Source: Pseudoalteromonas tetraodonis (GTDB lineage Bacteria; Pseudomonadota; Gammaproteobacteria; Enterobacterales; Alteromonadaceae). From it: a DNA stretch of 32,000 nt. The notes under the pieces were generated by a model. The model did no database searches. It saw only the letters and a program-made list of their open reading frames with translations, and was not told the origin of the DNA. The stretch is taken from assembly GCF_002310835.1 (NCBI RefSeq), contig NZ_CP011041.1, positions 2,400,001 through 2,432,000 on the forward strand, in the 5' to 3' direction. Below, one piece after another: positions 5,270 through 24,095 of this stretch (the stretch's first letter is position 1; each line of letters opens with the position of its first letter). Position numbers and translations under genes: made by a program.

Positions 5270-5288
5270 GGATATGTTATTTTAACGA

Positions 5289-8860: not shown

Positions 8861-10011
8861 TATTGCTTCTCTCGTTTATATGCTAATAGGCGATTTATAA
8901 ACTCAGTTGTAAGCTCATTTATGAGTCCAGTTTCTGCATTTAAAATTAAGCTAAAGCCAACATTTAAGTGTGGAAACACAACCAAATCACTGCGATAACC
9001 TTGCACCCAACCACTGTGGTAATAAAGCGTTTCATCATCATAATCATACACACGCCAGCCTAGCCCATAGTAGGCTTCGTTCATGTGCTCTCGCCATACT
9101 CGTCTGTAGCGTTCTTTTTTAGTATGTGTATAAGGACGCGTTTGCGTGGCCAATGCATCTAAGGATAATACCGATGGATATTGCCCTAATTGCGCATTTA
9201 ACCAAATAGCCATATCTGACGCACTAGCGTTTACCCCAGCTGCCGGAGCGACTTTATAATAATTCTTTTTCAAACGGGCACTGTACCAACGCTTTTTCCC
9301 ACGCACATGAGGGTGTGCGTAGTTACTATCTTGCACCATGGCATCGTAGCCTAAACTTGCATCGTTCATTTTTAGAGGGATAAAAAATGCGTCATTGAGC
9401 CACTGAGTATAAGTTTTGTTGGTGCTTTTTAAAATCACGTCATCAATTAAACTAAACATGACATTTTGATAGCCGTAACAGTCACCGGGTTCGCATATGG
9501 GTTTTACACTTAATAGCTTTTCTACAATATCGCTATACCCCATTCGCGATTCGATTAAATTATCGTATGCATTCGGTACTAGCCCACTAGAATGGCTTAA
9601 AATATGAAAAACCTTTAAATCATCTTTGTAGTCGGTTTGTTTAAATTCAGGAATGTAATGACTAACAGGAAAATACAAATTAAGTTGTTCTTCATTTGCA
9701 AGTTTTGCCGCTAACGACCCTGCAAACGTTTTAGATACTGAGGCCAAACGAAACCGAGTGTGTGGATTAATTTTTTGCCCACTGCGCACTTTGGTATGCC
9801 CCATAGTATGTATATAGTCACGCGCTTGTGCGTTGACGATGGAAAGCGCTCCGCCCGGAATCTTTTTTACTTTTAGTTTTTTTTCTACGTAGCGTCCATA
9901 ATTTTTAACAAAAGCTTCCCAGTCAGGATCTGTGCTTGCGCTTGCCTGTAAATGCGTCCCTAAAATACATAAAGCAAAAAAATAAAAGGGTAAGGAGTTA
10001 AAATACTTCAT
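8860..10011 (-). CDS. secreted serine hydrolase, beta-lactamase/transpeptidase (class C/PBP4*-like) fold
   Basis: The signal peptide is FFALCILGTHLQASA. The SxxK motif is SVSK (in RLASVSKTF). A YxN motif (YDN) and an HSG triad (YYHSGW), equivalent to KTG, are also present. Confidence 0.75.
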   Translation of the reverse strand: MKYFNSLPFYFFALCILGTHLQASASTDPDWEAFVKNYGRYVEKKLKVKKIPGGALSIVNAQARDYIHTMGHTKVRSGQKINPHTRFRLASVSKTFAGSLAAKLANEEQLNLYFPVSHYIPEFKQTDYKDDLKVFHILSHSSGLVPNAYDNLIESRMGYSDIVEKLLSVKPICEPGDCYGYQNVMFSLIDDVILKSTNKTYTQWLNDAFFIPLKMNDASLGYDAMVQDSNYAHPHVRGKKRWYSARLKKNYYKVAPAAGVNASASDMAIWLNAQLGQYPSVLSLDALATQTRPYTHTKKERYRRVWREHMNEAYYGLGWRVYDYDDETLYYHSGWVQGYRSDLVVFPHLNVGFSLILNAETGLINELTTEFINRLLAYKREKQ

Positions 10012-10126
10012 TCTTAGCTAATTTTTCTTTTTTAGTCATAATCAGCCTCTATAATATCATGAACTTTTGCTCGGACTAACGTACAATATGTTCGATTAAT
10101 GGCTTTTGAGTGGATGTAAAATATTT

Positions 10127-10936
10127 ATGCGTTTTTTAGTTGTATCACTTTTTATTGTATTAGCTTCAGGTTGTGCCGTAGTTAAGCAGCCTGCAGAACC
10201 TTTAGCAATGCCTGCAAAACCTTTGCTTAAGAGTCAAACTTACCAACTTAAATATGAAACCGAGCATGCTTCACCGAAAGTAAAATCGGTGCAATTACCT
10301 GCACATAACATTAAAAAAAATCAGACTGTCAGAGTGATCGTAGACCGTGCAAGTGTCACCGACACATTAGTATCTCAAATTAGCCAAGCACTTAACGATA
10401 AACAACTAAAAGTTACCACAACCGATAACAGTGATTACACGTTAGCTATCCATCAAGTTGACCTTGAGTTTATAGATGATGCTAAGTACATCCTAGCGCA
10501 GCCAGAAAAACCTTATTCATTGTTTTCAAAAGTAGCACAGCAATTCCCTTCTCAACAATGCGCAAATATACTGGCACAAGTTAGTATGCGCCTTACACAC
10601 AAAGCATCGGGAGATGTAGTTTGGTTTGCCAAATCATCAATAGATAGTGCAAGCTTTCACCGTGAGCCCCTAATCTATAGCTTTACTGAAGAAAAGAAGA
10701 TCACTAACGAGTTAGAAGTTGTTGCGTTTATTCATAAACATAATACCGAACAGGCTCGGCTTAAGCGTGCTGAACTTAAAAATGAAGTAACGGCCCCTGC
10801 TTATAAAACCATTACTAAACTGAGTCGTTTAACTAAATTAAATGGGCCATGTACACGTACTGAGATAAGCGCATTAACTCCCATGATGCAATTTTACTTA
10901 AGCAGTATACTTATCGATAAAATTAAGGTTCAGTAG
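10127..10936 (+). CDS. orphan lipoprotein (no family recognised)
   Basis: MRFLVVSLFIVLASGCAVV has a lipobox, LASG-C. The ATG at 10127 is preferred over the TTG at 10106 used by the track. I recognise no catalytic motifs. Confidence 0.6.
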   Translation: MRFLVVSLFIVLASGCAVVKQPAEPLAMPAKPLLKSQTYQLKYETEHASPKVKSVQLPAHNIKKNQTVRVIVDRASVTDTLVSQISQALNDKQLKVTTTDNSDYTLAIHQVDLEFIDDAKYILAQPEKPYSLFSKVAQQFPSQQCANILAQVSMRLTHKASGDVVWFAKSSIDSASFHREPLIYSFTEEKKITNELEVVAFIHKHNTEQARLKRAELKNEVTAPAYKTITKLSRLTKLNGPCTRTEISALTPMMQFYLSSILIDKIKVQ

Positions 10937-10951
10937 TTGCAGGACGACCGC

Positions 10952-10965
10952 TACATTTTTTTACA
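10952..10965 (+). promoter_or_regulatory. RstA-box-like direct repeat upstream of mipA paralogue A
   Basis: TACATTTTTTTACA matches the E. coli RstA box consensus TACATNTNGTTACA at every specified position except one (T for G at position 9). The TACA half-sites are 10 bp apart. The box abuts the -35 position of a TATACT -10-like hexamer at 10988-10993 and lies 64-77 nt upstream of the ATG at 11029. Confidence 0.4.
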
Positions 10966-11028
10966 GATTTAGCCAAGAGTTTGACAATATACTACCCTTT
11001 TAAGCAAACTCTAATTTAGGTTCCAAGG

Positions 11029-11886
11029 ATGAAGCATTTCCCACAAAGACATTTTTTCCGTTGTACAGCCTTATTGTTTGCGCTCATTTTTAGTGGCCAG
11101 AGCACAGCAAGCAATCGTTACTATGCCGATAACACATTGGAACCCACTACAGGGTTTGCCTGGGACTGGAGTGCAGGAGCTGGTTATTACATAGAAGATT
11201 CTTATTTGGTGGGGATGAATTCTTATGATGTTGGCGCCGAGTTAGATTTAAGCCTTGCGGTTTCTTACGATAATTTTTACCTTGATTTTGATCATAATCA
11301 ACTCAGCGGTGGACTTGTTTTAGGCTATAGCTTAATTAACAAATACGATTGGGGCCTTGATTTATTAGGTACTAATTCGCAAGCCGGGTTTGACGAACAA
11401 GGCTTAGGTATTTATAACGATGGCATTATTGAGCCACTGCGCGGTATCAAAAAACGTAACTATGATTTTGATACTGGCCTTCGATTAACACGTCGATTTG
11501 AAAACTCACAAATTTCCCTTGAATACTTACATGATATATCTGGTGCTCATAATGGCTGGGTGGCAAACGTATTTTTTAGTCATATTCAGCCTTGGCGTAA
11601 TTGGGAGTTTCGCTCTGGTATTGGCCTAAGTGCCTACTCTGCAGATTTTACAAACTATTATTTTGGTATTGATAGCGATGAAGCAAACGCAACTCGCCCT
11701 ATTTATCAAACCAATGCCAGTACCAGTATTATGTTTGAATTTCATGCTGAATATCCCATTAATCAAGATTGGGTCTTTTTAGCAGGCTGGTTAACTACTT
11801 GGTTTTCAAAAGAAATTGATGACAGCCCAATTATTTCCCAAGGATATCAACACAAAGCCAAGGTAGGCGTGCGTTATGTACTTTAG
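11029..11886 (+). CDS. MipA/OmpV-family outer-membrane beta-barrel protein (paralogue A)
   Basis: The signal peptide is CTALLFALIFSGQSTA. The sequence has an alternating beta-strand pattern. Family-typical motifs are shared with E. coli MipA and with paralogue B: LHDISG, NYYFGIDS (E. coli has NEYYYGVS) and IDDSPII (E. coli has TDSPMV). Confidence 0.7.
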   Translation: MKHFPQRHFFRCTALLFALIFSGQSTASNRYYADNTLEPTTGFAWDWSAGAGYYIEDSYLVGMNSYDVGAELDLSLAVSYDNFYLDFDHNQLSGGLVLGYSLINKYDWGLDLLGTNSQAGFDEQGLGIYNDGIIEPLRGIKKRNYDFDTGLRLTRRFENSQISLEYLHDISGAHNGWVANVFFSHIQPWRNWEFRSGIGLSAYSADFTNYYFGIDSDEANATRPIYQTNASTSIMFEFHAEYPINQDWVFLAGWLTTWFSKEIDDSPIISQGYQHKAKVGVRYVL

Positions 11887-12262
11887 ATTTTTTTACTGTT
11901 TATTGTTTAGTTATTCAGGCTCTTTGCTGGCAGCCCCAGTGCAAATACCCGCTCAATTGAGTGCAGTACCTGATACCTGTGTGGCCTTACGTGAAGGACG
12001 TCACTGTTACGCCGATGTTGTTTTGTCATGGCAGCAAGTAGAAGTGGGAAATTATTGTCTACGCGATGCCACCTCAAAGTACATTATGCAGTGCTGGCTT
12101 AAACAGCGACAAGGTTCGTTTAATTATGCCTTTGACTCAACGCAAAGTATTTCGTTTGAACTATTTGACAGTAATACATCACAAGTCATTGCCGTCACAG
12201 AAGTAAAATTACAATGGGTGTATCAAAATAGGCAAAAAAAGCGGCGTTGGCGGTTATTTTAG
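11876..12262 (+). CDS. small secreted four-cysteine protein (DUF3019-like), paralogue A
   Basis: The signal peptide is MYFRFFYCLLFSYSGSLLA-AP. The Cys pattern is C-x8-C-x16-C-x11-C-W. The C-terminal tail is basic and aromatic (RQKKRRWRLF). The gene overlaps the mipA-A stop by 11 nt. The DUF3019 family name is from memory and was not verified. Confidence 0.6.
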   Translation: MYFRFFYCLLFSYSGSLLAAPVQIPAQLSAVPDTCVALREGRHCYADVVLSWQQVEVGNYCLRDATSKYIMQCWLKQRQGSFNYAFDSTQSISFELFDSNTSQVIAVTEVKLQWVYQNRQKKRRWRLF

Positions 12263-12319
12263 TCACACACTATAAACATTATGATAGCTAAACATCATTT
12301 AGGTATGCGAAGAAAGCTT

Positions 12320-13024
12320 ATGGATAATTACGGTACTATTTTACTGGTTGAAGATGATATTTCTCTTGCACAATGGGTCACTGAGTATTTAACAGAGCAA
12401 GGCTATGTTGTACATGTATGTCATCGAGGTGATGAGGTAATAAGCCAAGTAAAACGTTTAAACCCACAACTTATTTTACTCGACATTATGCTGCCAGGGC
12501 TTGATGGTATTAGTGTATGTCGTGATCTACGTAGCTTTTATCATGCCCCAATTATAATGCTTACTGCCCGCGATGAAGAAATGGATGAAGTCATTGGGCT
12601 AGAAGTCGGTGCTACCGATTATATAATAAAACCAGTACGCCCTCGCGCATTGCTTGCACGCATTAAATCTGCCTTGCGCTACAGTAGCGACACGCCTAAA
12701 ACCGATGATCAAGCAAATATGATCAATATCGGTCAATTAAGTATTAATACCGAGTCACGCAACGTTACCCTTAACCAACAGGATGTGAACATTTCAAGCG
12801 CAGAGTATTTATTACTGCATTACTTAGCCAGTAATGCAGGACAAGTTGTTTCCCGCGATGCGGTGTTTAAAGCAACCAAAGGCAGGGAATATGATGGCTT
12901 AGATAGAAGCGTTGATGTGCTTATTTCTGCCTTGCGTAAAAAGTTTAATGATGACCCACAAAAACCAGAAAAAATTAAAACCATTTGGGGACGTGGTTAT
13001 TTGTTTGTGACTACAGCGTGGTAA
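12320..13024 (+). CDS. OmpR-family response regulator, RstA-like (paralogue A)
   Basis: The receiver domain has ILLVEDD, LILLDIMLPGLDG and IKP. The winged-helix region has REYDGLDRSVDVLISALRKKF and IKTIWGRGYLFVTTAW. These align closely with E. coli RstA (YDGLDRSVDVAISRLRKKL and RIKTVRNKGYLFAPHAW). The ATG at 12320 is preferred over the track start at 12281. Confidence 0.85.
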   Translation: MDNYGTILLVEDDISLAQWVTEYLTEQGYVVHVCHRGDEVISQVKRLNPQLILLDIMLPGLDGISVCRDLRSFYHAPIIMLTARDEEMDEVIGLEVGATDYIIKPVRPRALLARIKSALRYSSDTPKTDDQANMINIGQLSINTESRNVTLNQQDVNISSAEYLLLHYLASNAGQVVSRDAVFKATKGREYDGLDRSVDVLISALRKKFNDDPQKPEKIKTIWGRGYLFVTTAW

Positions 13025-13110
13025 GTTTTAATGCCTGAGTGCTTAAAATAATTAGCGCGATAGTAATAAAAGTCACTTCAGTACACCCAGCCTATTATGG
13101 AATAGCATCA

Positions 13111-14400
13111 ATGAAAAAGTTTTATATTTCACTACTAGGCAGTGCGCTGCTTTCAATTATTGTTTTAGGTTGGCTTATTGATGCATTTAGCCAACAAGCG
13201 CATGCGCCTTTGGATGAGTTTAGCGTTCAAAGCCAGATTATTGTCGGGTTAAGTAAACAGCTCACGGCGCTTAAACCCGATGCTCGCCCGCAACAAGTAA
13301 CAAAACTAGCCGCTGACTTTGACCTTATACTTAACTACAAATTAAATCAGTCGCTGGCACTGCCCTTAGCGCTATTAGATAAAATGCAAACCCAAGGCGG
13401 ATTAATACTCGAAGACGAGCAAGGCTTTTATATGCTCTACACAAATGATGAGTTAAGTCCTTATCATTTAACCATGCGTTTAGATAAACCCTATGAGGCC
13501 ACACAACGAAACGATATTATTTTAACGCTATTATTTTACACTGGCTTATGTGTTTTTATGGGTTTTATTATTACCCCTTTAGCAAAGCGCCTTACGGTGT
13601 TAAACGAAGCAGCAAAGCAATTTGCATCTGGTAATGTTAAAGCGCGTATTACCCCCTCTCGATTTACCTATATAAAAGATGTGGAACTGACCTTTAACCG
13701 TATGGCGAGTCAAATTGAAAAGCTAGTTGCTGAAAACAAGCTAATGGCCTCCAGCTTATCGCATGATATTAGAACTCCAATTGCTTGCTTACGCTTTGGT
13801 GTCGACGCCGCTCTTGATAGTCATGACGAGAGTAAAATAAAGCATTATTTAACTCGCATGGAAACCGACTTAGACCATATGGAGTCAATGCTAAAAAGCT
13901 ATTTAACGTTTGCTACTTTAGAGCAAAATGCGAATAAGCTTACTTACTCATCAGCAAACCTTAAACAATACCTAAGTGATATTGTATTGCAACTTGAGCC
14001 TAGAATAACCTCTCGCTCGCTTAATATTTCTTTAGAATGTGATGATCATACCGTTTATGCTGACTTACATTGGCTGGCAAGAGCAATCTCCAACTTAATT
14101 AATAATGCCTGCGACTTTGCAAATCACAGCATTCAAGTAACCGCTTCAGTACAAGAACGTTTTCTGGTGGTGAACATCGCCGACGACGGACCAGGCATTG
14201 CTCAAGAAAATAATCATAAAGTATTTAGCCCATTTTTTCGTGAACGCAGCCACCGTAATCGCAGTGATAATAGTTATGGCTTGGGGTTAGCAATCGTCGC
14301 CAAAGTTGCCGATTGGCATCATGGCACCGTAAAAGTGAGTAAAAGTGAACGGCTCTCAGGCGCCTGTTTCACATTAACCATCGCTCAGTTTGAACATTAA
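13111..14400 (+). CDS. sensor histidine kinase, RstB-like (paralogue A)
   Basis: Two TM helices flank a periplasmic segment of about 130 aa, followed by a HAMP domain. The H-box is SLSHDIRTP, the N-box is LINNACDFA, G1 is DDGPGI and G2 is GLGLAIV. The ATG at 13111 (MKKFYISLLGS) is preferred over the track start at 13039. Confidence 0.85.
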   Translation: MKKFYISLLGSALLSIIVLGWLIDAFSQQAHAPLDEFSVQSQIIVGLSKQLTALKPDARPQQVTKLAADFDLILNYKLNQSLALPLALLDKMQTQGGLILEDEQGFYMLYTNDELSPYHLTMRLDKPYEATQRNDIILTLLFYTGLCVFMGFIITPLAKRLTVLNEAAKQFASGNVKARITPSRFTYIKDVELTFNRMASQIEKLVAENKLMASSLSHDIRTPIACLRFGVDAALDSHDESKIKHYLTRMETDLDHMESMLKSYLTFATLEQNANKLTYSSANLKQYLSDIVLQLEPRITSRSLNISLECDDHTVYADLHWLARAISNLINNACDFANHSIQVTASVQERFLVVNIADDGPGIAQENNHKVFSPFFRERSHRNRSDNSYGLGLAIVAKVADWHHGTVKVSKSERLSGACFTLTIAQFEH

Positions 14401-14604
14401 TCAACAATGCAAAGATGCTCAATACAGCTGATAAACGAAATATAATTAAAAAAATTGTGCTATTTATAATCAAAATACGCACGTGTTATTTATACAGCTA
14501 AATAAAACGCAATAATTGTGCAACAGAGACAAATAAGCACTTTTTATTTAATTACAATTCCAGTAGATTGTCACGGCGTCGAAAAAATAGAGAAGCAGAA
14601 TAAT

Positions 14605-15960
14605 ATGAGTGCAGTAAGAGGTGAGTTTAGCTCCCGCTTTGGTTTTATAATGGCTGCGGCAGGATCAGCTGTTGGCTTGGGTAATATTTGGGGTTTTCCG
14701 ACTCAAACAGCAAGTAATGGGGGCGCTGCATTTTTAGTCGCGTATTTAGTACTGGCTTTCTTTTTAGCCTACCCCGCTTTAATGGCAGAACTGATGATAG
14801 GTCGCCATGGGCAAGCTAATGCGGTTTCTTCATTAACTAAATTAACCACGCGACCATGGCAAAAGCAATTTGCCTTTGCTGTCGGTTTTGGTGGTATTTT
14901 ATGTGCTGGATTTATTTTAAGTTTTTATGCCATTGTTGCCGGTTGGATGTTAAGTGCCACTTTAGAACCGGTAACCACATTAGTAGGCGCTGATGCCGCC
15001 TCTTTATGGTTAAGTGAGCAGTCGCTTACTCGTAATATTCTTTTCACTGTTTTATTTATTATTTTAACTGTTGCTATTATCAGCCGCGGTGTAGAAAACG
15101 GCATTGAAAAATGGTCTAAACGCTTAATGCCCGCTCTGCTCGGTATTTTGTTTGCCTTAATTGCCTACGTGATGACTCAAGAAGGCGCTGTTGAGGGGTT
15201 AAAAGCTTACTTAGTCCCTGACTTTTCTTCTATTTTTGACCCTACATTGTTAGTGAGTGCCTTAGGCCAAGCTTTCTTTTCACTGTCACTGGGCACCAGT
15301 GTGATGATTATATATGGCTCATATATCAGTAAAAAAGAAAACCTTGTGTCCCTTGGCGCGTATGTAACCTTAATTGATGTGTTTATAGCGTTTGTAGCGG
15401 GTTTATTGATCATCCCTGCTATGTACGTGGCACAAGCGCAAGGTGTTGAAATATTCTCTTCAACTACAGGTAAACTTCTCTCTGAAGATACTCTCGTATT
15501 TCAGGTATTGCCTGCCTTATTTGATGGCATGGGTGGTGTAGGTTTATTTGTTGGCTTTGCTTTTTTTGCATTGATGAGTATTGCCGCACTAACTTCATCT
15601 ATTTCCATGTTAGAAGCGCCAGTGTCGTACACGGTAGAGCGCTTTGCGATGAAACGTGTTCAAGCAACGTGGTTAATAGGCGCTTTAATTGCCATAGTGA
15701 GCATTACCATTGTGTGTAACCTAGGCACTTTATTTGGCTTAGTGATCACCCTAACAACCAAAGTTGCACAACCTTTATTAGGGCTTATGTGCTGTATATT
15801 TGTAGGTTGGATCTGGTACAGATCGTCACTACTAAAAGCGATTCAACAAGGTAACCCTGAGGTGCATAATACGTTATTTTGGAAGATATGGCCTTGGTAT
15901 ACTAAGTTTGTATGCCCTATTGCCATTAGCTTAGTATTCTTACATTCCCTACTAAGCTAG
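14605..15960 (+). CDS. sodium-dependent neurotransmitter:sodium symporter (NSS/SNF) family transporter
   Basis: The N-terminus is MSAVRGEFSSRFGFIMAAAGSAVGLGNIWGFP, containing the NSS hallmark GLGNIWxFP. About 11-12 TM helices are predicted. The ATG at 14605 is preferred over the track start at 14518. Confidence 0.85.
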   Translation: MSAVRGEFSSRFGFIMAAAGSAVGLGNIWGFPTQTASNGGAAFLVAYLVLAFFLAYPALMAELMIGRHGQANAVSSLTKLTTRPWQKQFAFAVGFGGILCAGFILSFYAIVAGWMLSATLEPVTTLVGADAASLWLSEQSLTRNILFTVLFIILTVAIISRGVENGIEKWSKRLMPALLGILFALIAYVMTQEGAVEGLKAYLVPDFSSIFDPTLLVSALGQAFFSLSLGTSVMIIYGSYISKKENLVSLGAYVTLIDVFIAFVAGLLIIPAMYVAQAQGVEIFSSTTGKLLSEDTLVFQVLPALFDGMGGVGLFVGFAFFALMSIAALTSSISMLEAPVSYTVERFAMKRVQATWLIGALIAIVSITIVCNLGTLFGLVITLTTKVAQPLLGLMCCIFVGWIWYRSSLLKAIQQGNPEVHNTLFWKIWPWYTKFVCPIAISLVFLHSLLS

Positions 15961-15974
15961 TTAAAAGATGCATA

Positions 15975-16002
15975 AAAAAGGCCCACATCAGTGGGCCTTT
16001 TT
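15975..16002. terminator. bidirectional terminator between the convergent NSS and GNAT genes
   Basis: The sequence reads AAAAAGGCCCAC-ATCA-GTGGGCCTTTTT, a 7-bp GC-rich core with flanking A and T runs. Confidence 0.8.
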
Positions 16003-16014
16003 AGTGGAGCGATA

Positions 16015-16458
16015 CTACTGCTTTAAAATCATATCCTGATGGGGTATGCCATCTTCTATATATTCATCACCAACACATTCAAAACCGAATGCGCGATAAA
16101 AATTCAGTAGGTAGGTTTGTGCGCCAATATAAATATCGCGAGTCGGCCATTGCGCCTTACAGCATGCTATTGCTTCATTGACTAACTGTTTGCCTAATCC
16201 AGAACTTCGCTGTGATTGAGCAACCAATACACGCCCTATCGCACTGTACTGAGCATCTTTTTCATAACAACGGGCATAGGCATGCACCGATAGCCCATCA
16301 AGTAAATAGACATGATGTGTAGAGTCTGCGATATCGTGATCATCAAGTTCGGGGTAAGGACATGCTTGTTCTACAACGAATACGTCGACACGTACACGCA
16401 TGATTGAAAACAGGGTTTGGGAGTCGAGCGCAGAGAATGGCTCACATTTAAACGCCAT
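16015..16458 (-). CDS. elaA: GNAT family N-acetyltransferase, ElaA-like
   Basis: RVRVDVFVVEQACPYPELDDHD, GRVLVAQSQRSSGLGKQL and GAQTYLLNFYRAFGFECVGDEYIEDGIPHQDM parallel E. coli ElaA (CAVFVVEQNCPYQDIDGDD and GAQAHLQNFYQSFGF...EEDGIPHIGM). Confidence 0.75.
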   Translation of the reverse strand: MAFKCEPFSALDSQTLFSIMRVRVDVFVVEQACPYPELDDHDIADSTHHVYLLDGLSVHAYARCYEKDAQYSAIGRVLVAQSQRSSGLGKQLVNEAIACCKAQWPTRDIYIGAQTYLLNFYRAFGFECVGDEYIEDGIPHQDMILKQ

Positions 16459-16510
16459 TTAAATACCTTTTTTATTGCAGGGGCTTACCTAAAGTAAGCC
16501 CCTAAAGCGA

Positions 16511-17254
16511 TTAAGCAAATAATCGCTCTAACTGATCACATAACTGCGATAAATTAACATGGTCATGCTCTATGGTTAAATCAACATAGCCATCACTTCT
16601 AAACGCTCTGTCTAATTCAATCAATACATGGGTTTTATGCGCTTCAGGAATAAACGACAACTCAATTTCTTTTATGCCAAACAAACTGCGGCTATTAGGC
16701 TGATACTCAAGCTCTTGATAACACCCCGACACAGATTGAAAAGTAGGAGCACGTAAATGGCCTTGCTCTACATCGGCTTTAACTAAACTAAAACCAAGCT
16801 TTTCCATCGCTTGCATGCATGTTTTAACCGCCTCATTAGGATAAATGTGTAAATGGTCTTTATCTGTTGGATCAAGCGCAAGGTCAATATCAAGGCCTGT
16901 TTCTAACCATACATAAGATTGATTATAACCTGCATTAATTTCAGTTATAGGCGTTTCTGAGTGTAAACGGGCTTCAAACGGAATAGTTCTTACTTCACCG
17001 GGCTCAATAATACCAATATCGGTAATGCGCCACTGGTCAATCACATGATTAGTGAAATAATCACCGTCTTCACTCGCCACTTTGACACGGGTAACTAACA
17101 TTAAGTCTAAACCGGTAATTTCTTGGCTCACATCGCCTGCAGTAATTACAATTTGCGCGTTAAATAATTGCCCCGGCTGAAGATGCTCGGTCTCTAAAAT
17201 AGTATCTACTTTGGCGGCACCAATGCCTACCGATGCTAAAATCTTTTTAAACAT
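16511..17254 (-). CDS. SpoOM (Spo0M) family sporulation-control-like protein
   Basis: The N-terminus MFKKILASVGIGAAKVDTILE is characteristic of the SpoOM family, and the size of about 250 aa fits. Confidence 0.7.
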   Translation of the reverse strand: MFKKILASVGIGAAKVDTILETEHLQPGQLFNAQIVITAGDVSQEITGLDLMLVTRVKVASEDGDYFTNHVIDQWRITDIGIIEPGEVRTIPFEARLHSETPITEINAGYNQSYVWLETGLDIDLALDPTDKDHLHIYPNEAVKTCMQAMEKLGFSLVKADVEQGHLRAPTFQSVSGCYQELEYQPNSRSLFGIKEIELSFIPEAHKTHVLIELDRAFRSDGYVDLTIEHDHVNLSQLCDQLERLFA

Positions 17255-17563
17255 ATTTTCTCCTTAAGCTAAGCAACTCTAATGTTTGCTTACGCTTAAA
17301 CTCCTTCGTTATGGCATCTTAACCACATTTAAAAGCTCTTGTCAGCGAAAAACTGCTATTTACATGCTGTTTACCATAAAACTAGCCATATATGTGCGTT
17401 TTTTATACATTGAAGCTACTTTACCTCTGCATAAACTGACAGTAGCAATCATTTGATAAATACTCACTATCACGTAACTAACTGCGTTAAATAAGTAGAT
17501 TAATTGTCAATAAGCATTGTTTTTCGCTACACTACAGTGCCTAAAAAAGTGGTATTAATAACT

Positions 17564-19135
17564 ATGGAACTAATTTATTTTGCTACCGCCTTCGTCTGCG
17601 GTTTTGGTATATACCAGCTAAAATTGCCGCCACTTATCGGCTTTCTTATGGCTGGATTTATTCTTAATTTAGCGGGTTATAAAAGCACGGAACTGCTGGA
17701 AACAATTGCATCTTTAGGGGTTACACTGCTACTTTTTAGTATTGGCCTCAAGCTTAAAATTTCAAATTTAATAAAACCTCAAGTCTGGGCTCCGGCCACC
17801 TTACATATTATTCTAAGCAGCGCTTTGTTTAGTGGCTTTATGCTACTACTGGGTGTTTTTGCACTGCCATTATTCGTCGATTTAAGTTGGCAAAGTGCGC
17901 TGTTAGTTGGTTTTGCTCTGAGCTTTTCAAGCACCGTATTTGCGGTAAAAGTTCTTGAAGAGCGCGGTGAAATGGCAAGCCTGCACGGTAAAATAGCCAT
18001 TGGTATTTTAGTTATGCAGGATATATTTGCGGTTATATTTTTAGCGGTCAGTACCGGTAAGTTACCGAATATTTGGGCCTTAGGGTTAATTATTGCCTTA
18101 CCTTTATTTCGCCCTGCTATGTACTGGGTGTTAAACCGCTCTAAACATGGTGAGTTACTGCCGCTATTTGGGTTTTTCTTTGCCTTAGTAGCAGGTTATA
18201 ACGCCTTTGAATTTGCAGGTCTCAAAGGTGATTTAGGTGCTTTGATTGTAGGTATGATGTTCGCACCACACAAAAAAGCCGGTGAATTGTCTAAGTCATT
18301 GCTTAGCCTAAAAGATATATTGCTAGTTGGCTTTTTCCTAAGCATTGGTTTAAGTGCAGAGCTTACTGCCCACTCCTTAGTCGTCGCTTTAGTGCTGGTA
18401 TTAATTATTCCAATTAAAACCCTGCTTTATTACATACTAACCAACCTATTTAAACTTCGTGCGCGTACCTCTTTGTTAACAGCATTTAGCCTAGCTAACT
18501 TTAGCGAATTTGGTTTGATTGTGTGTGCAGTTGCCGCATCTACCGGCATGGTTACCTCTGAGTGGCTTGCTGTTATTGCGATTGCGGTGTCGATCACCTT
18601 TGTAATTGCTTCTCCTTTAAATAAACGCTCTAACGAGCTATACGTTAAAATTGAACGCTTTTTATTAAAGTTTGAAAGCAAAACCCGCTTAGCTGAAGAG
18701 CTCCCAGTAAACTTAAATGACACAAAAATTGTTATTTTTGGCATGGGTAGAATTGGCACAGGTGCCTATGAAACAATAAACGCAACTCATCCGGATGTTG
18801 TTGCAGGTATTGATATTAAGCCTGAGGTAGTTGATAAGCATGTAAAGCGAGGTCGCCGAGTATTAATTGCCGATGCCACCGATCCTGATTTTTGGCAACG
18901 TGTTAACCACTCCCACGTTGAAATGGTAATGCTAGCTATGCCTAAGCACATGCAAAATATTTTTGCCTTAGAGCAATTACAAGCATCGGGTTATAAAGGA
19001 CAAGTAACGGCGATTGCCAACTACCCCGATCAGCAAAAAGAATTAGAAGAAATGGGAATAGACTCTACTTACAACTTTTACTTAGAAGCAGGTAGCGGTT
19101 TTGCAGAGCATGTAAAGCAAACCCTGTTTCCTTAA
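17564..19135 (+). CDS. CPA2-type cation:proton antiporter with a C-terminal KTN/TrkA-N domain (YbaL/Kef-like)
   Basis: The N-terminal part has about 12 TM helices and begins MELIYFATAFVCGFGIYQLKLPPLIGFLMAGFILN. The C-terminal part has a Rossmann motif, IVIFGMGRIGTGAYE. The ATG at 17564 is preferred over the TTG at 17504. Confidence 0.8.
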   Translation: MELIYFATAFVCGFGIYQLKLPPLIGFLMAGFILNLAGYKSTELLETIASLGVTLLLFSIGLKLKISNLIKPQVWAPATLHIILSSALFSGFMLLLGVFALPLFVDLSWQSALLVGFALSFSSTVFAVKVLEERGEMASLHGKIAIGILVMQDIFAVIFLAVSTGKLPNIWALGLIIALPLFRPAMYWVLNRSKHGELLPLFGFFFALVAGYNAFEFAGLKGDLGALIVGMMFAPHKKAGELSKSLLSLKDILLVGFFLSIGLSAELTAHSLVVALVLVLIIPIKTLLYYILTNLFKLRARTSLLTAFSLANFSEFGLIVCAVAASTGMVTSEWLAVIAIAVSITFVIASPLNKRSNELYVKIERFLLKFESKTRLAEELPVNLNDTKIVIFGMGRIGTGAYETINATHPDVVAGIDIKPEVVDKHVKRGRRVLIADATDPDFWQRVNHSHVEMVMLAMPKHMQNIFALEQLQASGYKGQVTAIANYPDQQKELEEMGIDSTYNFYLEAGSGFAEHVKQTLFP

Positions 19136-19313
19136 TAGGGTTTAGATGCAAATAGATTGCATTTACATTCCTTTACATCTGCGTATTTTATTGGTTTAAA
19201 AATAAGGTAAAATGTCTGTGTTGGTTTAGTAAAGCTAATACCTAAGTGTGTATTTAAATAAAATATACACAACTGGACCCCTTGCTTTTAATTAACCAAT
19301 AAGATTCTCAAAT

Positions 19314-19380
19314 TAGAGGGCCTACTCCCTCTATCAATAGGCTGTTACTTGCCCGTTACAGCCTATTTTATTTCTTTATT
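19314..19380 (+). other. tandem hairpins plus a U-rich tract (orphan terminator-like structure)
   Basis: Hairpin 1 is TAGAGGG-CCTACT-CCCTCTA (19314-19333). Hairpin 2 has a 10-bp stem, AATAGGCTGT pairing with ACAGCCTATT (19336-19367), around a 12-nt loop. It is followed by TTATTTCTTTATT. The structure lies about 180-230 nt after the antiporter stop and about 35-45 nt before the next ATG. Confidence 0.4.
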
Positions 19381-19413
19381 ATCCCTTACACTTAACACCT
19401 CTACTCATAAAAG

Positions 19414-19644
19414 ATGTCAATAATGGATCCTCAACAACTTAAAGTCGCCATTAATACCATTATGCCGTTTGGTAAATATGCGGGACGCCCCTTACTTTTG
19501 CTGCCTGAGCCTTATTTAGTGTGGTTTAAACAGCAAGGCTTTCCTAAAAGCAAGCTCGGCTCTCAACTTGCAATGATGTACGAAGTGAAGCTTAATGGTT
19601 TAGAGCAAATGTTGATGCCATTACTAGAAAAAAATAGTAAATAA
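19414..19644 (+). CDS. DUF3820-like small protein (family annotated as putative quorum-sensing-regulated virulence factor)
   Basis: MPFGKYAGRPLLLLPEPYLVWFKQQGFPKSKLGSQLAMMYEVKLNGLE matches my memory of the DUF3820/QSregVF_b core. This was not verified. Confidence 0.6.
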   Translation: MSIMDPQQLKVAINTIMPFGKYAGRPLLLLPEPYLVWFKQQGFPKSKLGSQLAMMYEVKLNGLEQMLMPLLEKNSK

Positions 19645-19711
19645 ATAGAACTTTTCTATAAGTGGCCTGTCTATCTATTTGCTACTTGTTGATTTTTTGG
19701 TTTTAAACCGC

Positions 19712-19738
19712 AAAAAAGCGCCTTTAAGGCGCTTTTTA
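19712..19738. terminator. bidirectional terminator between the convergent DUF3820-like gene and kinase B
   Basis: The sequence reads AAAAAAGCGCC-TTTAA-GGCGCTTTTT. Confidence 0.75.
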
Positions 19739-19752
19739 TTGTGTGGAATTTA

Positions 19753-20985
19753 CTAGTCTAAGCTAATAATAAACTTAACCCCACCCAGTGTAGAGTCTTC
19801 AATCGTGCACTGCCCTTTATGCCATGACACAATTTTACTCACTATCGCCAGTCCTAACCCAAACCCACCGGTTTTTTTATCACGACTTTTATCTAAGCGC
19901 GTAAACGGCTTAAATACTTTTTCGCGCTCAGAGAAGGCAATGCCGGGGCCATCATCTTCAATCACTAGCAGTAACTTTTCATCGGCAGTACTTAAACTAA
20001 TATGTACACTTTTCGAGGCATGTTTAAGTGCATTACTGATTAAGTTTTGCAGCACCCGCGACATAAAATGACTATCGCATAAGTAAATAAATTGAGTGGG
20101 GAGCGTTGTTGTTAGTTTAATACGGGTATCAAAGTTTACTTTTTCAATATTAGTTTTAATTAATGCAACGATATCGCAAAGGGCTAATTGTAGACTAGGT
20201 TGCTGTGTATCTAAACGGGCGTATTCCAACATTTCAGATACCAAGGACTCCAGTTCATGAATATCCATTTGCATGTCAGATAAATACTGCTGTGCTTTGG
20301 TATCGTGAGTTTTATCCTCAAGTATTGCAATAGCAAACTTCAACCGCGCTAATGGCGTTCTAAATTCATGAGATACAGAAGAGGTGAGCTCTTGCTGAGC
20401 ACTCAGTAAAAACTCAATACGTTGCTGCATTACTTGCAATGTATCGGTGATGGGTAAGAAGAATGACTTTGAGCTATCGCTTAATTGAAAGTCTTGCGAG
20501 CCACCCACTGCCTCGCATGCATGACTCAGCTTTGCAAAGTCTCGCCACAACAAAAAGCTCCACAAACCTATTGGTAAACTTATAATAAACAACACCAGTA
20601 AATACGGTAACACAGTCCCGGAGCTGCTGTGTTTAACACCTACAGGGCCTACTTGTAGCAATTGTGAATTATTTAGCGTTACATACCAAACGATACGCTG
20701 CTGTTTATCATATAAATAAAGGTAATGGTTTTGAAATAGTTGTGCTTGCTGTTCTGGTGGGAGCACCAGATCTTGCTGGGCAATGACTTGGCTATCAAAA
20801 TTATGTTTAAGCTGCTCAAGCCCATCTGGGGTTTGTGAAAGCAGCCATAAAGACTGCCCGAATTCGTCATCTAACAATACACTTTGCTGAGATTCATCAT
20901 AGGGCCAAAACTGCTCTATAACGCCACTAACAATAAACAAAGAGGCAATAATATACACGTAAAGGCTTATAAATAGCTTTCCCAT
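19753..20985 (-). CDS. sensor histidine kinase, RstB-like (paralogue B)
   Basis: The N-terminus MGKLFISLYVYIIASLFIV resembles E. coli RstB MKKLFIQFYLLLFV. The H-box is SVSHEFRTP. EMLEYARLD resembles RstB ELLTYARLD. The N-box is LISNALKHA, G1 is DDGPGI, and FTRLDKSRDKKTGGFGLGLAIV matches RstB closely. Confidence 0.87.
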   Translation of the reverse strand: MGKLFISLYVYIIASLFIVSGVIEQFWPYDESQQSVLLDDEFGQSLWLLSQTPDGLEQLKHNFDSQVIAQQDLVLPPEQQAQLFQNHYLYLYDKQQRIVWYVTLNNSQLLQVGPVGVKHSSSGTVLPYLLVLFIISLPIGLWSFLLWRDFAKLSHACEAVGGSQDFQLSDSSKSFFLPITDTLQVMQQRIEFLLSAQQELTSSVSHEFRTPLARLKFAIAILEDKTHDTKAQQYLSDMQMDIHELESLVSEMLEYARLDTQQPSLQLALCDIVALIKTNIEKVNFDTRIKLTTTLPTQFIYLCDSHFMSRVLQNLISNALKHASKSVHISLSTADEKLLLVIEDDGPGIAFSEREKVFKPFTRLDKSRDKKTGGFGLGLAIVSKIVSWHKGQCTIEDSTLGGVKFIISLD

Positions 20986-21011
20986 TAACCTAGCCTAACA
21001 CCTTGCATTTA

Positions 21012-21704
21012 TTACATATCCCACGCATCTGATACAAATAGATAGCCTTGCCCCCATACCGTTTTAATTCGATAGGGTTTATCACTGTTATCACCGAGCT
21101 TTTTACGAATGCGTGATACACGAACATCCACCGTGCGGTCTAACCCGTCGTACTCACGCCCTATCATATGTTGATGGACATGCTCTCGACTGAGCACTTC
21201 ACCAGCATTTGAAGCCAATAACCACAGCAATTCAAATTCATGAGAAGTCAGGACAATTTCAACACCGCTTAGCTTTACAATGCGGCTGGTTTTATCTATT
21301 GATAAGTCACCAAATTGAAGTTCTTCAATCGCTTTAACACTTGGCTGTCCACGGCGAAGCAATGCACTAATTCGAGCAAGAAGTACACGCGGCTCTGCCG
21401 GTTTTATAACGTAGTCGTCAGCCCCGAGTTCTAAGCCTATGACTTGATCGAAGTCTTCACCCTTTGCTGTTAGCATTAAGATAGGGAGAGTGTATTTGTC
21501 ACGTACTTGTCGACATACGCTAAAGCCATCTTTTCCTGGCAACATTACATCTAAAATGATCAAGTCGACGTGGTTTTCACTAAGATAAGGGAACACTTCG
21601 TCACCGCGTTCTAAAACGTCAACTTCTAAGCCATTATGCTCAAGATAGTCTTTGGTTAATTGTTGCAACCCTAAATCATCTTCAACAAGTAATATCTTTG
21701 GCAT
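21012..21704 (-). CDS. OmpR-family response regulator, RstA-like (paralogue B)
   Basis: MPKILLVEDD, LIILDVMLPGKDG, FELLWLLASNAGEVLSRE, REYDGLDRTVDVRVSRIRKKLGDNSDKPYRIKTVWGQGYLFVSDAW are very close to E. coli RstA. By manual alignment, roughly half of the receiver-domain residues are identical to paralogue A. Confidence 0.88.
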   Translation of the reverse strand: MPKILLVEDDLGLQQLTKDYLEHNGLEVDVLERGDEVFPYLSENHVDLIILDVMLPGKDGFSVCRQVRDKYTLPILMLTAKGEDFDQVIGLELGADDYVIKPAEPRVLLARISALLRRGQPSVKAIEELQFGDLSIDKTSRIVKLSGVEIVLTSHEFELLWLLASNAGEVLSREHVHQHMIGREYDGLDRTVDVRVSRIRKKLGDNSDKPYRIKTVWGQGYLFVSDAWDM

Positions 21705-21718
21705 TTACTGCTCCTAAA

Positions 21719-22096
21719 TTAAAAAAAGCTCCAAGGTGAGCGTAGCCGATGTTTTTTCTTAGCGTATGCGGTTTGCACTTCTATTTGCACACTCGCTAAC
21801 GATACACCTGTATGGGGATTAATCAGGGAGTATATGGTCTCCACCTGAACACGCGCTTTATAACTAAGTTGGCCTTTTTTGACACCTTGCCAGCATTGTA
21901 ATTGTGTATCTTGTTGGTATAAACATACATCGCTAGCGGCTGACAGTTGCCACTTAAATTTTAACTCAAGATCACAAAATTCTTGTTGTTCGGAAACCAC
22001 ACAGACTTTGGGTGATACGTTAAGTGAAGAGGCTTTTGCAACGCTAGCGTTGCTAAAAAATGAAGCTGTAAGCACAACCAACATAAAACACTTCAT
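21719..22096 (-). CDS. small secreted four-cysteine protein (DUF3019-like), paralogue B
   Basis: The signal peptide is MKCFMLVVLTASFFSNASVA. The Cys pattern is C-x8-C-x16-C-x9-C-W. The tail is basic and aromatic (KKKHRLRSPWSFF). The start lies 1 nt after the mipA-B stop. Confidence 0.6.
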   Translation of the reverse strand: MKCFMLVVLTASFFSNASVAKASSLNVSPKVCVVSEQQEFCDLELKFKWQLSAASDVCLYQQDTQLQCWQGVKKGQLSYKARVQVETIYSLINPHTGVSLASVQIEVQTAYAKKKHRLRSPWSFF

Positions 22097-22097
22097 A

Positions 22098-22937
22098 TTA
22101 AAATGTATGTTCGAATCCTATAAAGGCGGTCATTGAATAGTCATGTTCAAAAAGCGGGCTGCTATCCATTGCTGAATAATCATAATAGGCTAAATGAAAA
22201 CGAAGCGCGTTGACTCCATCTACAGGCCAACGGGCGTCGATTTTAGCATAAGGTTGCCAACTACTACCAACTTCTATTTCACCGTAAATAGATTCAGCGC
22301 TATTTAAACCATAAAAATAGTTATTTAGTTGGGCTGATTTGTAATTAACGCCTAACGTCGACTTTAACGTTAATTGCTTAAACTCATGGTGATATTGCCA
22401 TTGCAACGATCCCCTGTAGCCATTATAAACACTGTTTACATCATGCAATAATTGCACAGAAAATACTTGCTGCTGCTTTACAAAAAAATAGCTGATACCG
22501 GCATCAAGTGCGACTCGTCTTTTTTGTATATTATTTATATTTACTTGACGAGGTGAGTCAGTGTGTAGCGATTCTAATATCTCGTTCTCAGCGGTTGTTT
22601 TAAAGGGGAAAATATTTTGTGGATGCCAATCAATAAAAAAGCGTGACTCAGGGTTAATTTCTGACACAAAACTAACGTTATGTTGTTTGCTTTGTAAAAA
22701 AGAATAACCAAGACGGCCATTATCAAAAAACCAATTTTGACCATAATAAGCCACTTGCGGAATAACAACTAAGGGGATGTTATCTGCACCATACAGAGGA
22801 TTTGTGATCACCCCAGCACCAACACTCACACTAAGATTAAGCTCATCAGTGGATATATGTTGCTGCTTCTGAGCAATAGCATTAGTGCTTAATAGCACTA
22901 ATAACAGGCATGTGTTTATTCTCAGATGGAACCGCAT
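22098..22937 (-). CDS. MipA/OmpV-family outer-membrane beta-barrel protein (paralogue B)
   Basis: VSVGAGVITNPLYGADNIPLVVIPQVAYYGQNWFFDNGRLGYSF parallels E. coli MipA LGAGVGVVEHPYKDYDTDVYPVPVINYEGDNFWFRGLGGGYYL. NNYFYGL and MDSSPLF are also present, and the C-terminal residue is Phe. The ATG at 22937 gives a clean signal peptide (MRFHLRINTCLLLVLLSTNAIA). The track's GTG at 22997 adds 20 residues that do not resemble a signal peptide. Confidence 0.8.
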   Translation of the reverse strand: MRFHLRINTCLLLVLLSTNAIAQKQQHISTDELNLSVSVGAGVITNPLYGADNIPLVVIPQVAYYGQNWFFDNGRLGYSFLQSKQHNVSFVSEINPESRFFIDWHPQNIFPFKTTAENEILESLHTDSPRQVNINNIQKRRVALDAGISYFFVKQQQVFSVQLLHDVNSVYNGYRGSLQWQYHHEFKQLTLKSTLGVNYKSAQLNNYFYGLNSAESIYGEIEVGSSWQPYAKIDARWPVDGVNALRFHLAYYDYSAMDSSPLFEHDYSMTAFIGFEHTF

Positions 22938-23048
22938 GAAGTTAATCGCTAGTTTATAAAGTGGCTTTGACCCTATAGTAGCAAGTAGTATGAACACAAG
23001 CTCTAGAGGGTTACAATCATTAACAAATTTGATACAAACAGAACACGT

Positions 23049-24095
23049 TTACATATCGGCCGCTATTTCGACCCGATTACGACCATGGGTTTTAGCTAAA
23101 TAAAGTGCTCTATCTGCCTTTTCAACTAATAAACAGCTTTTACTAAAAGGCTCCATTAAAGCAATGCCGAAACTGGCTGAAATATTACGTTTATTATTAC
23201 TGTCTTCTTTTTTACGAATCGTCAATTTGGCAATGCTCAAACGAAGCTGATTACAAAATGCCATCGCATCATTAATGCTTTCAAAGTAACCCGTAATACA
23301 AAATTCTTCACCACCAAAACGATAAGCTCTGTATTGCTCTTGTACACTATTTTGCACTTTTTGAGCGACTAGCTTGAGTACCTCATCGCCTTTTTGATGG
23401 CCAAAATCGTCATTAAAACGTTTAAAATGATCAATATCGAACATAATCAACACCGCTAATTTACCGTGTTCATTTTGTGAAGAGGCGTTCAAACAAAACT
23501 CAACAATGTCTGTATCAAACTTACCGCGATTAAATAATCCGGTTAAGGAATCTTTATCAACCGCTTCTTGGGTCACGCTAAGCGCTTCTTTTAAATCTTT
23601 AATTTCGTTGTACGCTTGCGCTAATTTGGTTTGGAATCCACGGGCGTAATCTTGCATCGCAATTGATTCGTCAGTTAGGCGCTCAACGCAAGAAAGGATC
23701 TCATTAAATGAGTTAATACTAGAGAGCGTTTTTAATTCATTTTGTGAATCAACTAACGAGGTAGTAAAGCTTTTCGAATATTGAATGGAGTCACTAAGAT
23801 CAAACTGCATTTGCTCTACGGTGCCATGAAACCTTTCAGACATTTGTTGAAAAAATGCAAGCTCTTCGTCATTAATATGCTTATTAAAAATTTCTTGGGC
23901 GGTTTGAGCTGAACACGTATTGTGCAAAGAGATGACTTTATCAAGCTCTGTGTTTAGTTGTGGGTTGTCGCCCTGTACATAACAGTACCAAATAGCATAA
24001 TTTATTGGCGTTACAGGCATTTTGTATTTAACCATCAACGGAATGGCTTTTTTTAAACACTGGGCAGAATGAGCAAGTGAAACCGTATTATCCAT
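23049..24095 (-). CDS. GGDEF diguanylate cyclase with an N-terminal helical/coiled-coil region
   Basis: The GGDEF domain contains DSLTGLFNRGKFD, DIDHFKRFNDDFGH and an intact active site RFGGEEF. There is no RxxD I-site at the usual position upstream of GGEEF (the residues are QEQY). No TM segment is evident. Confidence 0.85.
   Translation of the reverse strand: MDNTVSLAHSAQCLKKAIPLMVKYKMPVTPINYAIWYCYVQGDNPQLNTELDKVISLHNTCSAQTAQEIFNKHINDEELAFFQQMSERFHGTVEQMQFDLSDSIQYSKSFTTSLVDSQNELKTLSSINSFNEILSCVERLTDESIAMQDYARGFQTKLAQAYNEIKDLKEALSVTQEAVDKDSLTGLFNRGKFDTDIVEFCLNASSQNEHGKLAVLIMFDIDHFKRFNDDFGHQKGDEVLKLVAQKVQNSVQEQYRAYRFGGEEFCITGYFESINDAMAFCNQLRLSIAKLTIRKKEDSNNKRNISASFGIALMEPFSKSCLLVEKADRALYLAKTHGRNRVEIAADM

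Follow-up and report, generated by a model that had tools for sequence, protein, structure and literature searches.

A 32,000-nt stretch of the Pseudoalteromonas tetraodonis genome (contig NZ_CP011041.1, positions 2,400,001 to 2,432,000; called the window below, with coordinates counted from its first nucleotide) carries two copies of a four-gene cassette that encodes, in this order, a MipA/OmpV-family outer-membrane barrel, a small secreted protein of the family DUF3019, an RstA-like response regulator and an RstB-like sensor kinase. We found that this module is a widely conserved four-gene unit of marine Gammaproteobacteria, often present in several copies per genome. That it is a conserved module which regulates its own expression is, in our judgement, highly probable. 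As for its function, the reading that we favour, with a probability of roughly 0.55, is an autoregulated envelope-stress module of the RstAB type in which the barrel and DUF3019 stand upstream of the kinase and which probably reports cationic or membrane-perturbing compounds.

Two cassettes of one module and their recurrence in distant loci

An earlier note on this DNA had reported the four-gene order twice, as cassette A at 11029-14400 on the plus strand and cassette B at 22937-19753 on the minus strand, and all eight open reading frames (ORFs) lie at these positions. In cassette A, mipA_A (11029..11886) encodes a barrel of 285 residues with a predicted signal peptide and a mature net charge of −17. 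It is followed by DUF3019_A (11876..12262), encoding a secreted protein of 128 residues with cysteines at 35, 44, 61 and 73 and the tail ...RQKKRRWRLF, by the gene of the OmpR-family RstA-like regulator RR_A (12281..13024; start at 12320 in some gene callers), and by that of the RstB-like kinase HK_A (13111..14400), which has two transmembrane segments and 429 residues counted from the ATG at 13111, where gene callers start it, versus the GTG at 13039 that opens the longest ORF. Cassette B consists of mipA_B (22098..22937), encoding a MipA/OmpV-family barrel of 279 residues from the ATG at 22937 (the gene-caller start coincides with that of the earlier note); DUF3019_B (21719..22096), encoding a secreted protein of 125 or 121 residues (gene-caller start at 22096 or 22084) with the four-Cys framework and the tail ...KKKHRLRSPWSFF; the gene of the RstA-like response regulator RR_B (21012..21704); and that of the RstB-like sensor kinase HK_B (19753..20985), of 410 residues. 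The barrel and DUF3019 genes overlap by 11 nt in cassette A and are separated by 1 nt in cassette B, in agreement with the junctions described before. The two copies converge on a spacer of 5352 bp (14401-19752) that holds five unrelated genes, encoding an SNF transporter, a GNAT acetyltransferase, Spo0M, a KefB-like exchanger and QSregVF_b.

All four members form paralogous pairs, with E-values between the copies of 1e-9 for the barrels, 4e-10 for the DUF3019 proteins, 2e-80 for the regulators and 3.5e-39 for the kinases. When the eight proteins were checked against profile hidden Markov models (HMMs), both barrels matched MipA (PF06629) over profile positions 2-220 and 1-221 of 221, with 120.2 and 106.2 bits against a cut-off of 24.2 (E-values of 1.9e-34 for mipA_A and 3.6e-30 for mipA_B), and both small proteins matched DUF3019 (PF11456) over positions 1-102 of 102, with 98.3 and 95.1 bits against a cut-off of 25 (4e-28 and 4e-27). 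The two regulators were composed of Response_reg and Trans_reg_C and the two kinases of HisKA and HATPase_c, all of these Pfam matches being well over the gathering scores. The likeness to RstA and RstB that had been recognized by eye held up in that these were the top NCBIfam models for all four proteins, but the scores stayed under the equivalog cut-offs: the regulators reached 242 and 245 bits with the RstA model (NF007977; cut-off 330) and the kinases 199 and 244 bits with the RstB model (NF007898; cut-off 478). RR_A and RR_B are 42% and 44% identical to Escherichia coli RstA. HK_B aligns with E. coli RstB over its full length at 30% identity, the range for both kinases being 29-30%. The periplasmic loop of HK_A has about 106 residues and a net charge of −4, and that of HK_B a net charge of −7.

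The barrel motifs LHD, NY(Y/F)(F/Y)G and D(D/S)SP, which the earlier note had picked out, are invariant columns in the alignment of the two barrels. Both barrels have hydrophobic N-terminal leaders; mipA_B ends in F and mipA_A in ...RYVL, and most barrels of the module end in ...YVF. The equivalog model of Vibrio OmpV (NF045789) gave partial matches of 80.2 and 45.7 bits, far under its cut-off of 400, and the identity of the window barrels to E. coli MipA was 30% over 88 residues and 22% over 228 residues. Barrels linked to DUF3019 are acidic, with a median net charge of −12 (−17 in mipA_A and −7 in mipA_B). A sequence search of the PDB with the barrel found no solved homologue. For P. aeruginosa MipA and V. 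cholerae OmpV, a 12-stranded barrel with a lateral opening and an electronegative lumen has been predicted, and the negative net charges of the two window barrels would fit such a lumen.

Both DUF3019 copies have signal peptides and share one Cys framework, and the four cysteines are invariant family-wide; together with the Trp after the fourth Cys and the C-terminal Phe they are the residues that are invariant or nearly so throughout the family. The C-terminal 16 residues carry positive charge (median +5), and among 36 cluster representatives the tail ended in WRLF in 22, in WKLF in five and in WSFF in five. AlphaFold2 predicted a confident β-sandwich core at residues ~27-114, with a predicted local distance difference test (pLDDT) score of >90, and a low-confidence tail. 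A Foldseek comparison of this model with the PDB returned only generic immunoglobulin (Ig)-like folds (SoxY, E=2.8e-3, template-modelling score ~0.5), with no NlpE match, and a PDB sequence search with DUF3019 found no relative. As modelled, the core is an Ig-like β-sandwich of about 105 residues with two probable disulfides. The searchable literature contained no mention of DUF3019, PF11456 or IPR021559.

The fixed linkage of the four genes, proposed from the window, proved to be near-obligate among all sampled DUF3019 genes. The sample consisted of 90 DUF3019 genes from metagenomes. The metagenome scan, which contributed 80 loci, was seeded by one peptide pattern from an 11-sequence DUF3019 subset and leans towards one sub-family; neighbours were assigned with HMMs built iteratively from the window proteins. 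MipA was directly upstream of DUF3019 in 70/73 informative metagenomic genes (18/20 when counted per 70%-identity cluster), a regulator was downstream in 74/76 (21/22 per cluster), and the kinase was next in order in 54/55 (18/19 per cluster). Contig look-ups of about eight divergent DUF3019 members, drawn from a protein search whose matches were mostly from Pseudoalteromonas, relied on the collection's own Pfam annotation and gave the order MipA–DUF3019–regulator–kinase with different flanks each time. In a cluster look-up of 20 proteins the members came only from Pseudoalteromonas species, Thalassotalea fusca and unclassified gammaproteobacterial metagenome-assembled genomes, and in a plasmid collection DUF3019 was present only on Pseudoalteromonas chromids.

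The exceptions to the linkage were few in kind. One is a barrel disrupted by an insertion sequence (L162, 466-663 and 2214-2873; L163), with an IS3-like transposase fragment upstream of the DUF3019 gene; the extended ORF of this DUF3019 gene starts with a MipA C-terminal remnant (…ITDSP…), and since it keeps the C-terminal end of the disrupted barrel we regard this as a decayed module. One contig was rearranged, and elsewhere an extra barrel–DUF3019 pair precedes a complete cassette directly. The only DUF3019 genes without a regulator of their own adjoin a full cassette. In L121 (1578-7700) and L122, a lone MipA gene, a MipA-DUF3019 pair and a complete cassette follow one another on one strand, the envelope pair having been expanded locally without a second two-component system.

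Within Pseudoalteromonas, both cassettes and the intervening unrelated genes are syntenic across 69 loci, which were collected by a genome-collection scan with one narrow DUF3019 peptide pattern that retrieved this genus only. Since the flanking genes are equally syntenic, conservation at the level of the genus alone proves nothing. The window itself matches chromosome I of Pseudoalteromonas sp. SM9913 and of close relatives. At least one Pseudoalteromonas species (L022) lacks cassette B. Conversely, Pseudoalteromonas sp. NC201 has two more complete cassettes in tandem on its second replicon (1.24 Mb, NZ_CP022523.1; L165, 8154-11281 and 13561-16792), and P. piscicida NZ_CP074588 likewise has two further tandem cassettes, so that the number of copies in some species exceeds the two of chromosome I. 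For the tandem stretch of NC201, the PLSDB gene table contains no annotated features.

The two window copies are old. Copies A and B are 24% identical in the barrels (over 83 residues), 22% in DUF3019, 52% in the regulators and 28% in the kinases, and their DNA similarity is essentially nil. All four proteins of copy A score higher against modules of other organisms than against copy B: mipA_A reached 150 bits with the barrel of L079 and 44 bits with that of copy B, and HK_A 291 bits with an out-of-genus module kinase and 133 bits with HK_B. The nearest relatives of copy B are in L083 and L084. Because each copy is closer to out-of-genus modules, A and B are best described as deep branches of one module family, and because the nearest relatives agree across the four proteins, the module is inherited as a block. 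The phrase "kept through a duplication" in the earlier note is therefore misleading: the copies are deep paralogues with near-nil DNA similarity and did not arise by a recent duplication within the genome. The envelope-exposed parts diverged most; within the kinase, for example, the periplasmic loop is 15% and the cytoplasmic part 29% identical between A and B. This pattern suggests that the two Pseudoalteromonas copies may be insulated channels with different inputs.

A predicted RstA operator upstream of the operon

A direct repeat resembling the RstA box, TACATTTTTTTACA, is located upstream of cassette A (10952..10965, plus strand). It matches 13/14 positions of the E. coli consensus TACATNTNGTTACA, itself a direct repeat of TACA (PMC4117788, PMC5385354). 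The most conserved block upstream of mipA_A in 49 distinct Pseudoalteromonas sequences is TACATTTTT..TTACAG, and in the window this block is the repeat TACATTTTTTTACA just described. On the gene strand before the barrel, TACA-N6-TACA was present in 48/59 distinct distant modules, as compared with 1.4 on average and at most 5 in shuffled sequences, and most of these boxes read TACATTTTGTTACA, an exact match to the E. coli box. Within the window alone, the pattern occurred four times versus 1.7 expected, which is not significant; the case for the box rests for this reason on its position, its conservation and its recurrence in distant loci. The canonical box before the barrel in 48 of the 59 modules argues for autoregulation by an RstA-type regulator, which, as inferred from sequence, would act through the predicted box upstream of the whole operon.

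The DNA-binding domains of the two regulators best matched the solved RstA DNA-binding domains (86-109 bits, versus ≤68 bits for any other regulator, e.g. OmpR), and both end in GYLFV..AW, as had been noted, an ending that recurs in Klebsiella pneumoniae RstA (GYLFAPHAW). All three specificity residues of K. pneumoniae RstA, R199, V203 and R207, are kept in the recognition helix of RR_B (DRTVDVRVSRIRKK); two of the three, R199 and V203, are kept in that of RR_A (DRSVDVLISALRKK), where the equivalent of R207 is Ala. Across loci, Arg207 occurred with G at box position 9 in 13/14 cases and Ala or Ser with T in 7/8, a co-variation that fits each regulator reading the box of its own operon.

A sigma-70-like promoter candidate, TTTACA-17-GACAAT (10960..10988, plus strand), has a −35 element that overlaps the second half-site of the cassette A box; it is a consensus match only (9/12) and by itself no evidence of function. 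Upstream of cassette B is a conserved repeat block, TGTATCAAATTTGTTAATGATTGTAAC (23010..23036, minus strand), with TACA-type half-sites at a spacing of 10-11 bp that are inverted with respect to the gene. Its core, TTGTTA..ATTGTAAC, is also found in the out-of-genus B-lineage locus L083. Directly 3' of the HK_B stop codon we read by eye a hairpin resembling an intrinsic terminator, GCGCC-TTAAA-GGCGC followed by T6 (19712..19734, minus strand); it is absent from the listing of a scan tool.

The QSregVF_b gene (19414-19644) of the spacer has a second TACA-N6-TACA site of the window, TACATTCCTTTACA (19164-19177, plus strand), some 240 nt ahead of it. This site is much like the cassette A box and is conserved in 21/47 distinct Pseudoalteromonas sequences, and a QSregVF_b gene also adjoins the B-lineage module in L083. 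The QSregVF_b gene may be a member of the regulon.

Barrel and DUF3019 as possible co-sensors or outputs

Systems with a related composition have been described. In Vibrio cholerae, carR-carS-ompV-virK is a polymyxin-induced operon, and OmpV, a MipA-family barrel, was proposed to bind polymyxin (PMC12012098). CarSR (CarRS = VprAB) is treated as the homologue of RstAB; its regulator CarR, which binds a site resembling the RstA box, has ompV among its direct targets (PMC9178039). The module resembles this car operon in having a MipA/OmpV-family barrel co-transcribed with an RstAB-like system and a protein of a small family, induction being by the operon's own system in V. cholerae, where the barrel was proposed to sense polymyxin or defensin. 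The gene order differs, being regulator-kinase-barrel-accessory in V. cholerae and barrel-accessory-regulator-kinase here, and the accessory protein is VirK (VirK/YbjX family, predicted cytoplasmic) there but the secreted DUF3019 here. Furthermore, the V. cholerae synteny is limited to the species and close relatives, whereas the DUF3019 module is widespread and often multi-copy.

In Pseudomonas aeruginosa, the genes for MipA and the lipoprotein MipB adjoin parRS; the two proteins co-purify, MipA binds polymyxin, and loss of mipBA lowers the output of ParRS (PMC10936184). Here, too, an outer-membrane MipA barrel and an envelope partner are encoded beside an RstA/ParR-like system, and the arrangement has the same logic as that put forward in the earlier note. 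However, MipB is a lipoprotein of about 600 residues that has a β-lactamase fold without SxxK and two 8-stranded barrel domains, whereas DUF3019 is a sandwich of about 105 residues that is predicted to be Ig-like, and mipBA forms an operon apart from parRS, whereas the DUF3019 module is a single operon. The PF00144 genes found beside some DUF3019 modules have an intact SxxK and are without the extra domains of MipB. The genetic coupling of the barrel to an RstA/ParR-like system is common to these systems and the module, and the accessory protein of the module is DUF3019, neither MipB nor VirK.

The enterobacterial RstA/RstB system (E. coli, K. pneumoniae; PMC4117788) is the best family match, with likeness in the DNA-binding domain, its specificity residues, the kinase topology and the operator, the box of most modules being equal to the E. 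coli consensus. Unlike in the module, neither a barrel nor a DUF3019 gene adjoins rstAB in E. coli, in line with the earlier note, and mipA is unlinked to it. No RstA box above chance was detected upstream of E. coli mipA, and we saw no evidence of an ancient RstA-mipA link outside operonic modules. In Burkholderia thailandensis, a MipA/OmpV gene belongs to the polymyxin-inducible regulon of BesRS (PMC9426598). BesRS is similar in that a regulator of the RstA kind (45% identity to the E. coli protein) answers envelope disturbance, including that caused by polymyxin, and controls a gene of the MipA/OmpV family; unlike here, the barrel is unlinked, DUF3019 is absent and the operator half-sites are TGCG/TGCA. 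A functional analogue is NlpE-OmpA-CpxA, in which information from an outer-membrane-associated protein crosses the periplasm and reaches the sensor loop of a kinase in the inner membrane (PMC10936184); it differs in that the families are unrelated, the genes lie outside the kinase operon and NlpE is a lipoprotein.

In the reading favoured here, the acidic barrel would detect cationic or membrane-perturbing compounds in the outer membrane, by analogy with MipA-MipB/ParRS of P. aeruginosa and CarRS-OmpV of V. cholerae. DUF3019, as a putative disulfide-stabilized Ig-like domain with a flexible cationic W-R-L-F tail, would connect the barrel with the kinase through the acidic loop that the latter exposes to the periplasm, and the phosphorylated regulator would bind the upstream box and raise transcription of the whole operon, resulting in positive feedback. 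To our knowledge, no natural signal of RstB-type kinases has been established. The parts of this scheme differ in probability. A role of the barrel and DUF3019 as co-sensors ahead of the kinase is an argument from analogy to which we give slightly less than even odds, and that the signal is a cationic peptide or outer-membrane damage is a still more tentative assignment. We consider it quite unlikely that DUF3019 is a periplasmic signal carrier that works by displacement of a tethered ligand, in which the tail would sit in the acidic barrel lumen, be outcompeted by cationic peptides, and so free the Ig-like domain or the tail to engage the loop of the RstB-like kinase. The earlier proposal of a four-component trans-envelope sensing unit is thus reasonable insofar as the four genes are a fixed unit, but the sensing role of the barrel and the small protein is assigned by analogy. 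Its statement that signal and mechanism are undescribed holds for DUF3019; for a barrel and an accessory protein that feed a kinase of the RstAB/ParRS type it does not, since such systems were published in 2024-2025 (PMC10936184, PMC12012098, PMC9178039).

Several points weigh against the envelope-stress reading. The present data do not distinguish a co-sensor from a co-regulated effector, and modules that serve purely as outputs, too, typically have their effector genes in front of the two-component system. Barrels outside the module can be equally acidic, E. coli MipA having the same net charge (−7) as mipA_B, and the correlation between tail charge and barrel charge was weak (rho = −0.25, uncorrected for phylogeny). 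An AlphaFold2 barrel model built from the two window paralogues had to be discarded (pLDDT 38.7). The repeats of cassette B are inverted and degenerate, with no canonical box on its gene strand, and the co-variation of residue 207 with the box represents a single lineage event. The sampling was biased as well: 40 of the 90 metagenomic genes belong to one 70% cluster, and a profile search found about 1080 DUF3019 clusters at 50% identity in the family.

In the main rival reading, the barrel and DUF3019 would be protective outputs. The kinase would then sense alone via its loop, and the two envelope proteins, as the principal products of the response, would bind, sequester or exclude cationic compounds or repair the envelope, their first place in the operon maximizing induction. 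We regard this as rather unlikely, although the predicted RstA box would drive the barrel gene first and operons with effectors ahead of their own two-component system, such as mdtABCD-baeSR, are common. The MipA/OmpV gene of B. thailandensis is known only as a regulon member (PMC9426598), and in V. cholerae mutation of ompV by itself heightens the sensitivity to antimicrobials (PMC12012098). On the other hand, linkage between effector and regulator is rarely so near obligate as the 74/76 and 54/55 found here, and all four proteins were inherited as a block. The envelope parts and the kinase loop co-diverge fastest, as expected of interacting partners in genomes whose 2-4 copies have to be kept insulated, and deletion of mipBA in P. 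aeruginosa reduces ParRS output (PMC10936184). Near-obligate linkage and co-divergence of the envelope parts favour an interaction between the proteins, short of proof.

A weaker rival, which we judge decidedly improbable, is a cell-wall module in which the barrel and DUF3019 organize or monitor murein enzymes and the system answers cell-wall damage, not cationic peptides. E. coli MipA scaffolds MltA and PBP1B, from which its name derives, but the window barrels are only distant relatives of that protein, whose gene has no RstA box beyond chance expectation. Similarly, a PF00144 gene adjoins cassette A and such a gene directly follows the kinase in 13/38 distinct downstream neighbours, yet this neighbour is confined to one DUF3019 clade and Pseudoalteromonas, and the core unit contains no murein enzyme. 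In Photobacterium, penicillin tolerance and cell shape are influenced by RstAB, and envelope disturbance induced by β-lactams elicits a response of BesRS (PMC9426598); in contrast, the barrel-plus-RstAB/ParRS systems that have been studied respond to polymyxin. Finally, the repeated order could be synteny without function, a neutral leftover of local duplication or of hitch-hiking in one genus, given that the flanks are as syntenic as the cassettes within Pseudoalteromonas. This explanation is hardly credible, because the order recurs in distant lineages with entirely different flanks, the modules share an operator, the start/stop junctions are tight or overlapping, and the copies are too diverged for a recent duplication.

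Neighbouring genes and meaning of the module

Genes of several kinds adjoin the cassettes. Divergent from cassette A, upstream of it, lies a gene of the β-lactamase/penicillin-binding family PF00144 (8860-10011, minus strand), whose product is secreted and has an intact SVSK motif. A PF00144 lipoprotein gene (lipobox LLTAC, SAGK intact) was found directly after the kinase gene on the same strand in 13/38 distinct metagenomic modules, all of one DUF3019 clade; loci with this arrangement include L089, L107, L124, L130, L136, L139, L141, L143, L147, L150 and L152. This neighbour recalls MipB, the β-lactamase-fold partner in P. aeruginosa. As a core member of the module the PF00144 gene was ruled out by its confinement to the one clade and Pseudoalteromonas. 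In every Pseudoalteromonas locus, cassette A is immediately preceded by a gene for a predicted lipoprotein of 276 residues (lipobox LASGC; 10106-10936, plus strand) with no Pfam match. It was rejected as a fifth member, since no metagenomic locus contained a homologue and the operator lies downstream of its ORF; this absence of metagenomic homologues, together with a conserved upstream block of its own, indicates that the gene is genus-specific and probably outside the operon.

Directly upstream of cassette B is the gene of a GGDEF protein (23049-24095, minus strand). Elsewhere, GGDEF proteins and adenylate/guanylate cyclases each accounted for 4/31 distinct upstream neighbours, and GGDEF-EAL proteins for 4/38 distinct downstream neighbours; loci with such cyclic-nucleotide signalling neighbours are L076-L078, L081, L086, L087, L091, L093, L100 and L114. 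In L079, the out-of-genus module closest to cassette A, DUF2860 genes flank the module on both sides (268-1266 and 4783-5790, both on the minus strand). In one module, L102, a gene for an EptA-type lipid A phosphoethanolamine transferase (Sulfatase plus EptA_B_N; 8674-10476, plus strand) comes directly after the kinase gene, and a cluster of four overlapping TACA-N6-(T/A)ACA repeats (8667-8740) is located ahead of it. An EptA-type gene with TACA repeats fits an output of cationic-peptide resistance in the L102 lineage, and hints at lipid A modification as in polymyxin-resistance regulons.

The concept of trans-envelope signalling by a barrel is already published; what is new here is the DUF3019 partner, the fixed barrel-first operon, and the breadth and multiplicity of the module. 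In several pathogens, virulence, efflux and resistance to antimicrobial peptides are influenced by RstAB-type systems, and two recent papers propose that a MipA-family barrel and a partner feed such kinases, each for a narrow strain group. The genomic context assigns a function, at the strength given above, to a domain of unknown function. The four-gene units are compact and could be moved to a reporter strain for tests of how an event at the outer membrane is passed on to a kinase in the inner membrane, and the naturally diverged pairs of paralogues are suited to specificity-swap experiments. Should the tethered-ligand mechanism be true, it would constitute the first defined input pathway for RstB-type kinases, and it would explain why a genome can hold several insulated copies whose envelope parts diverge fast.

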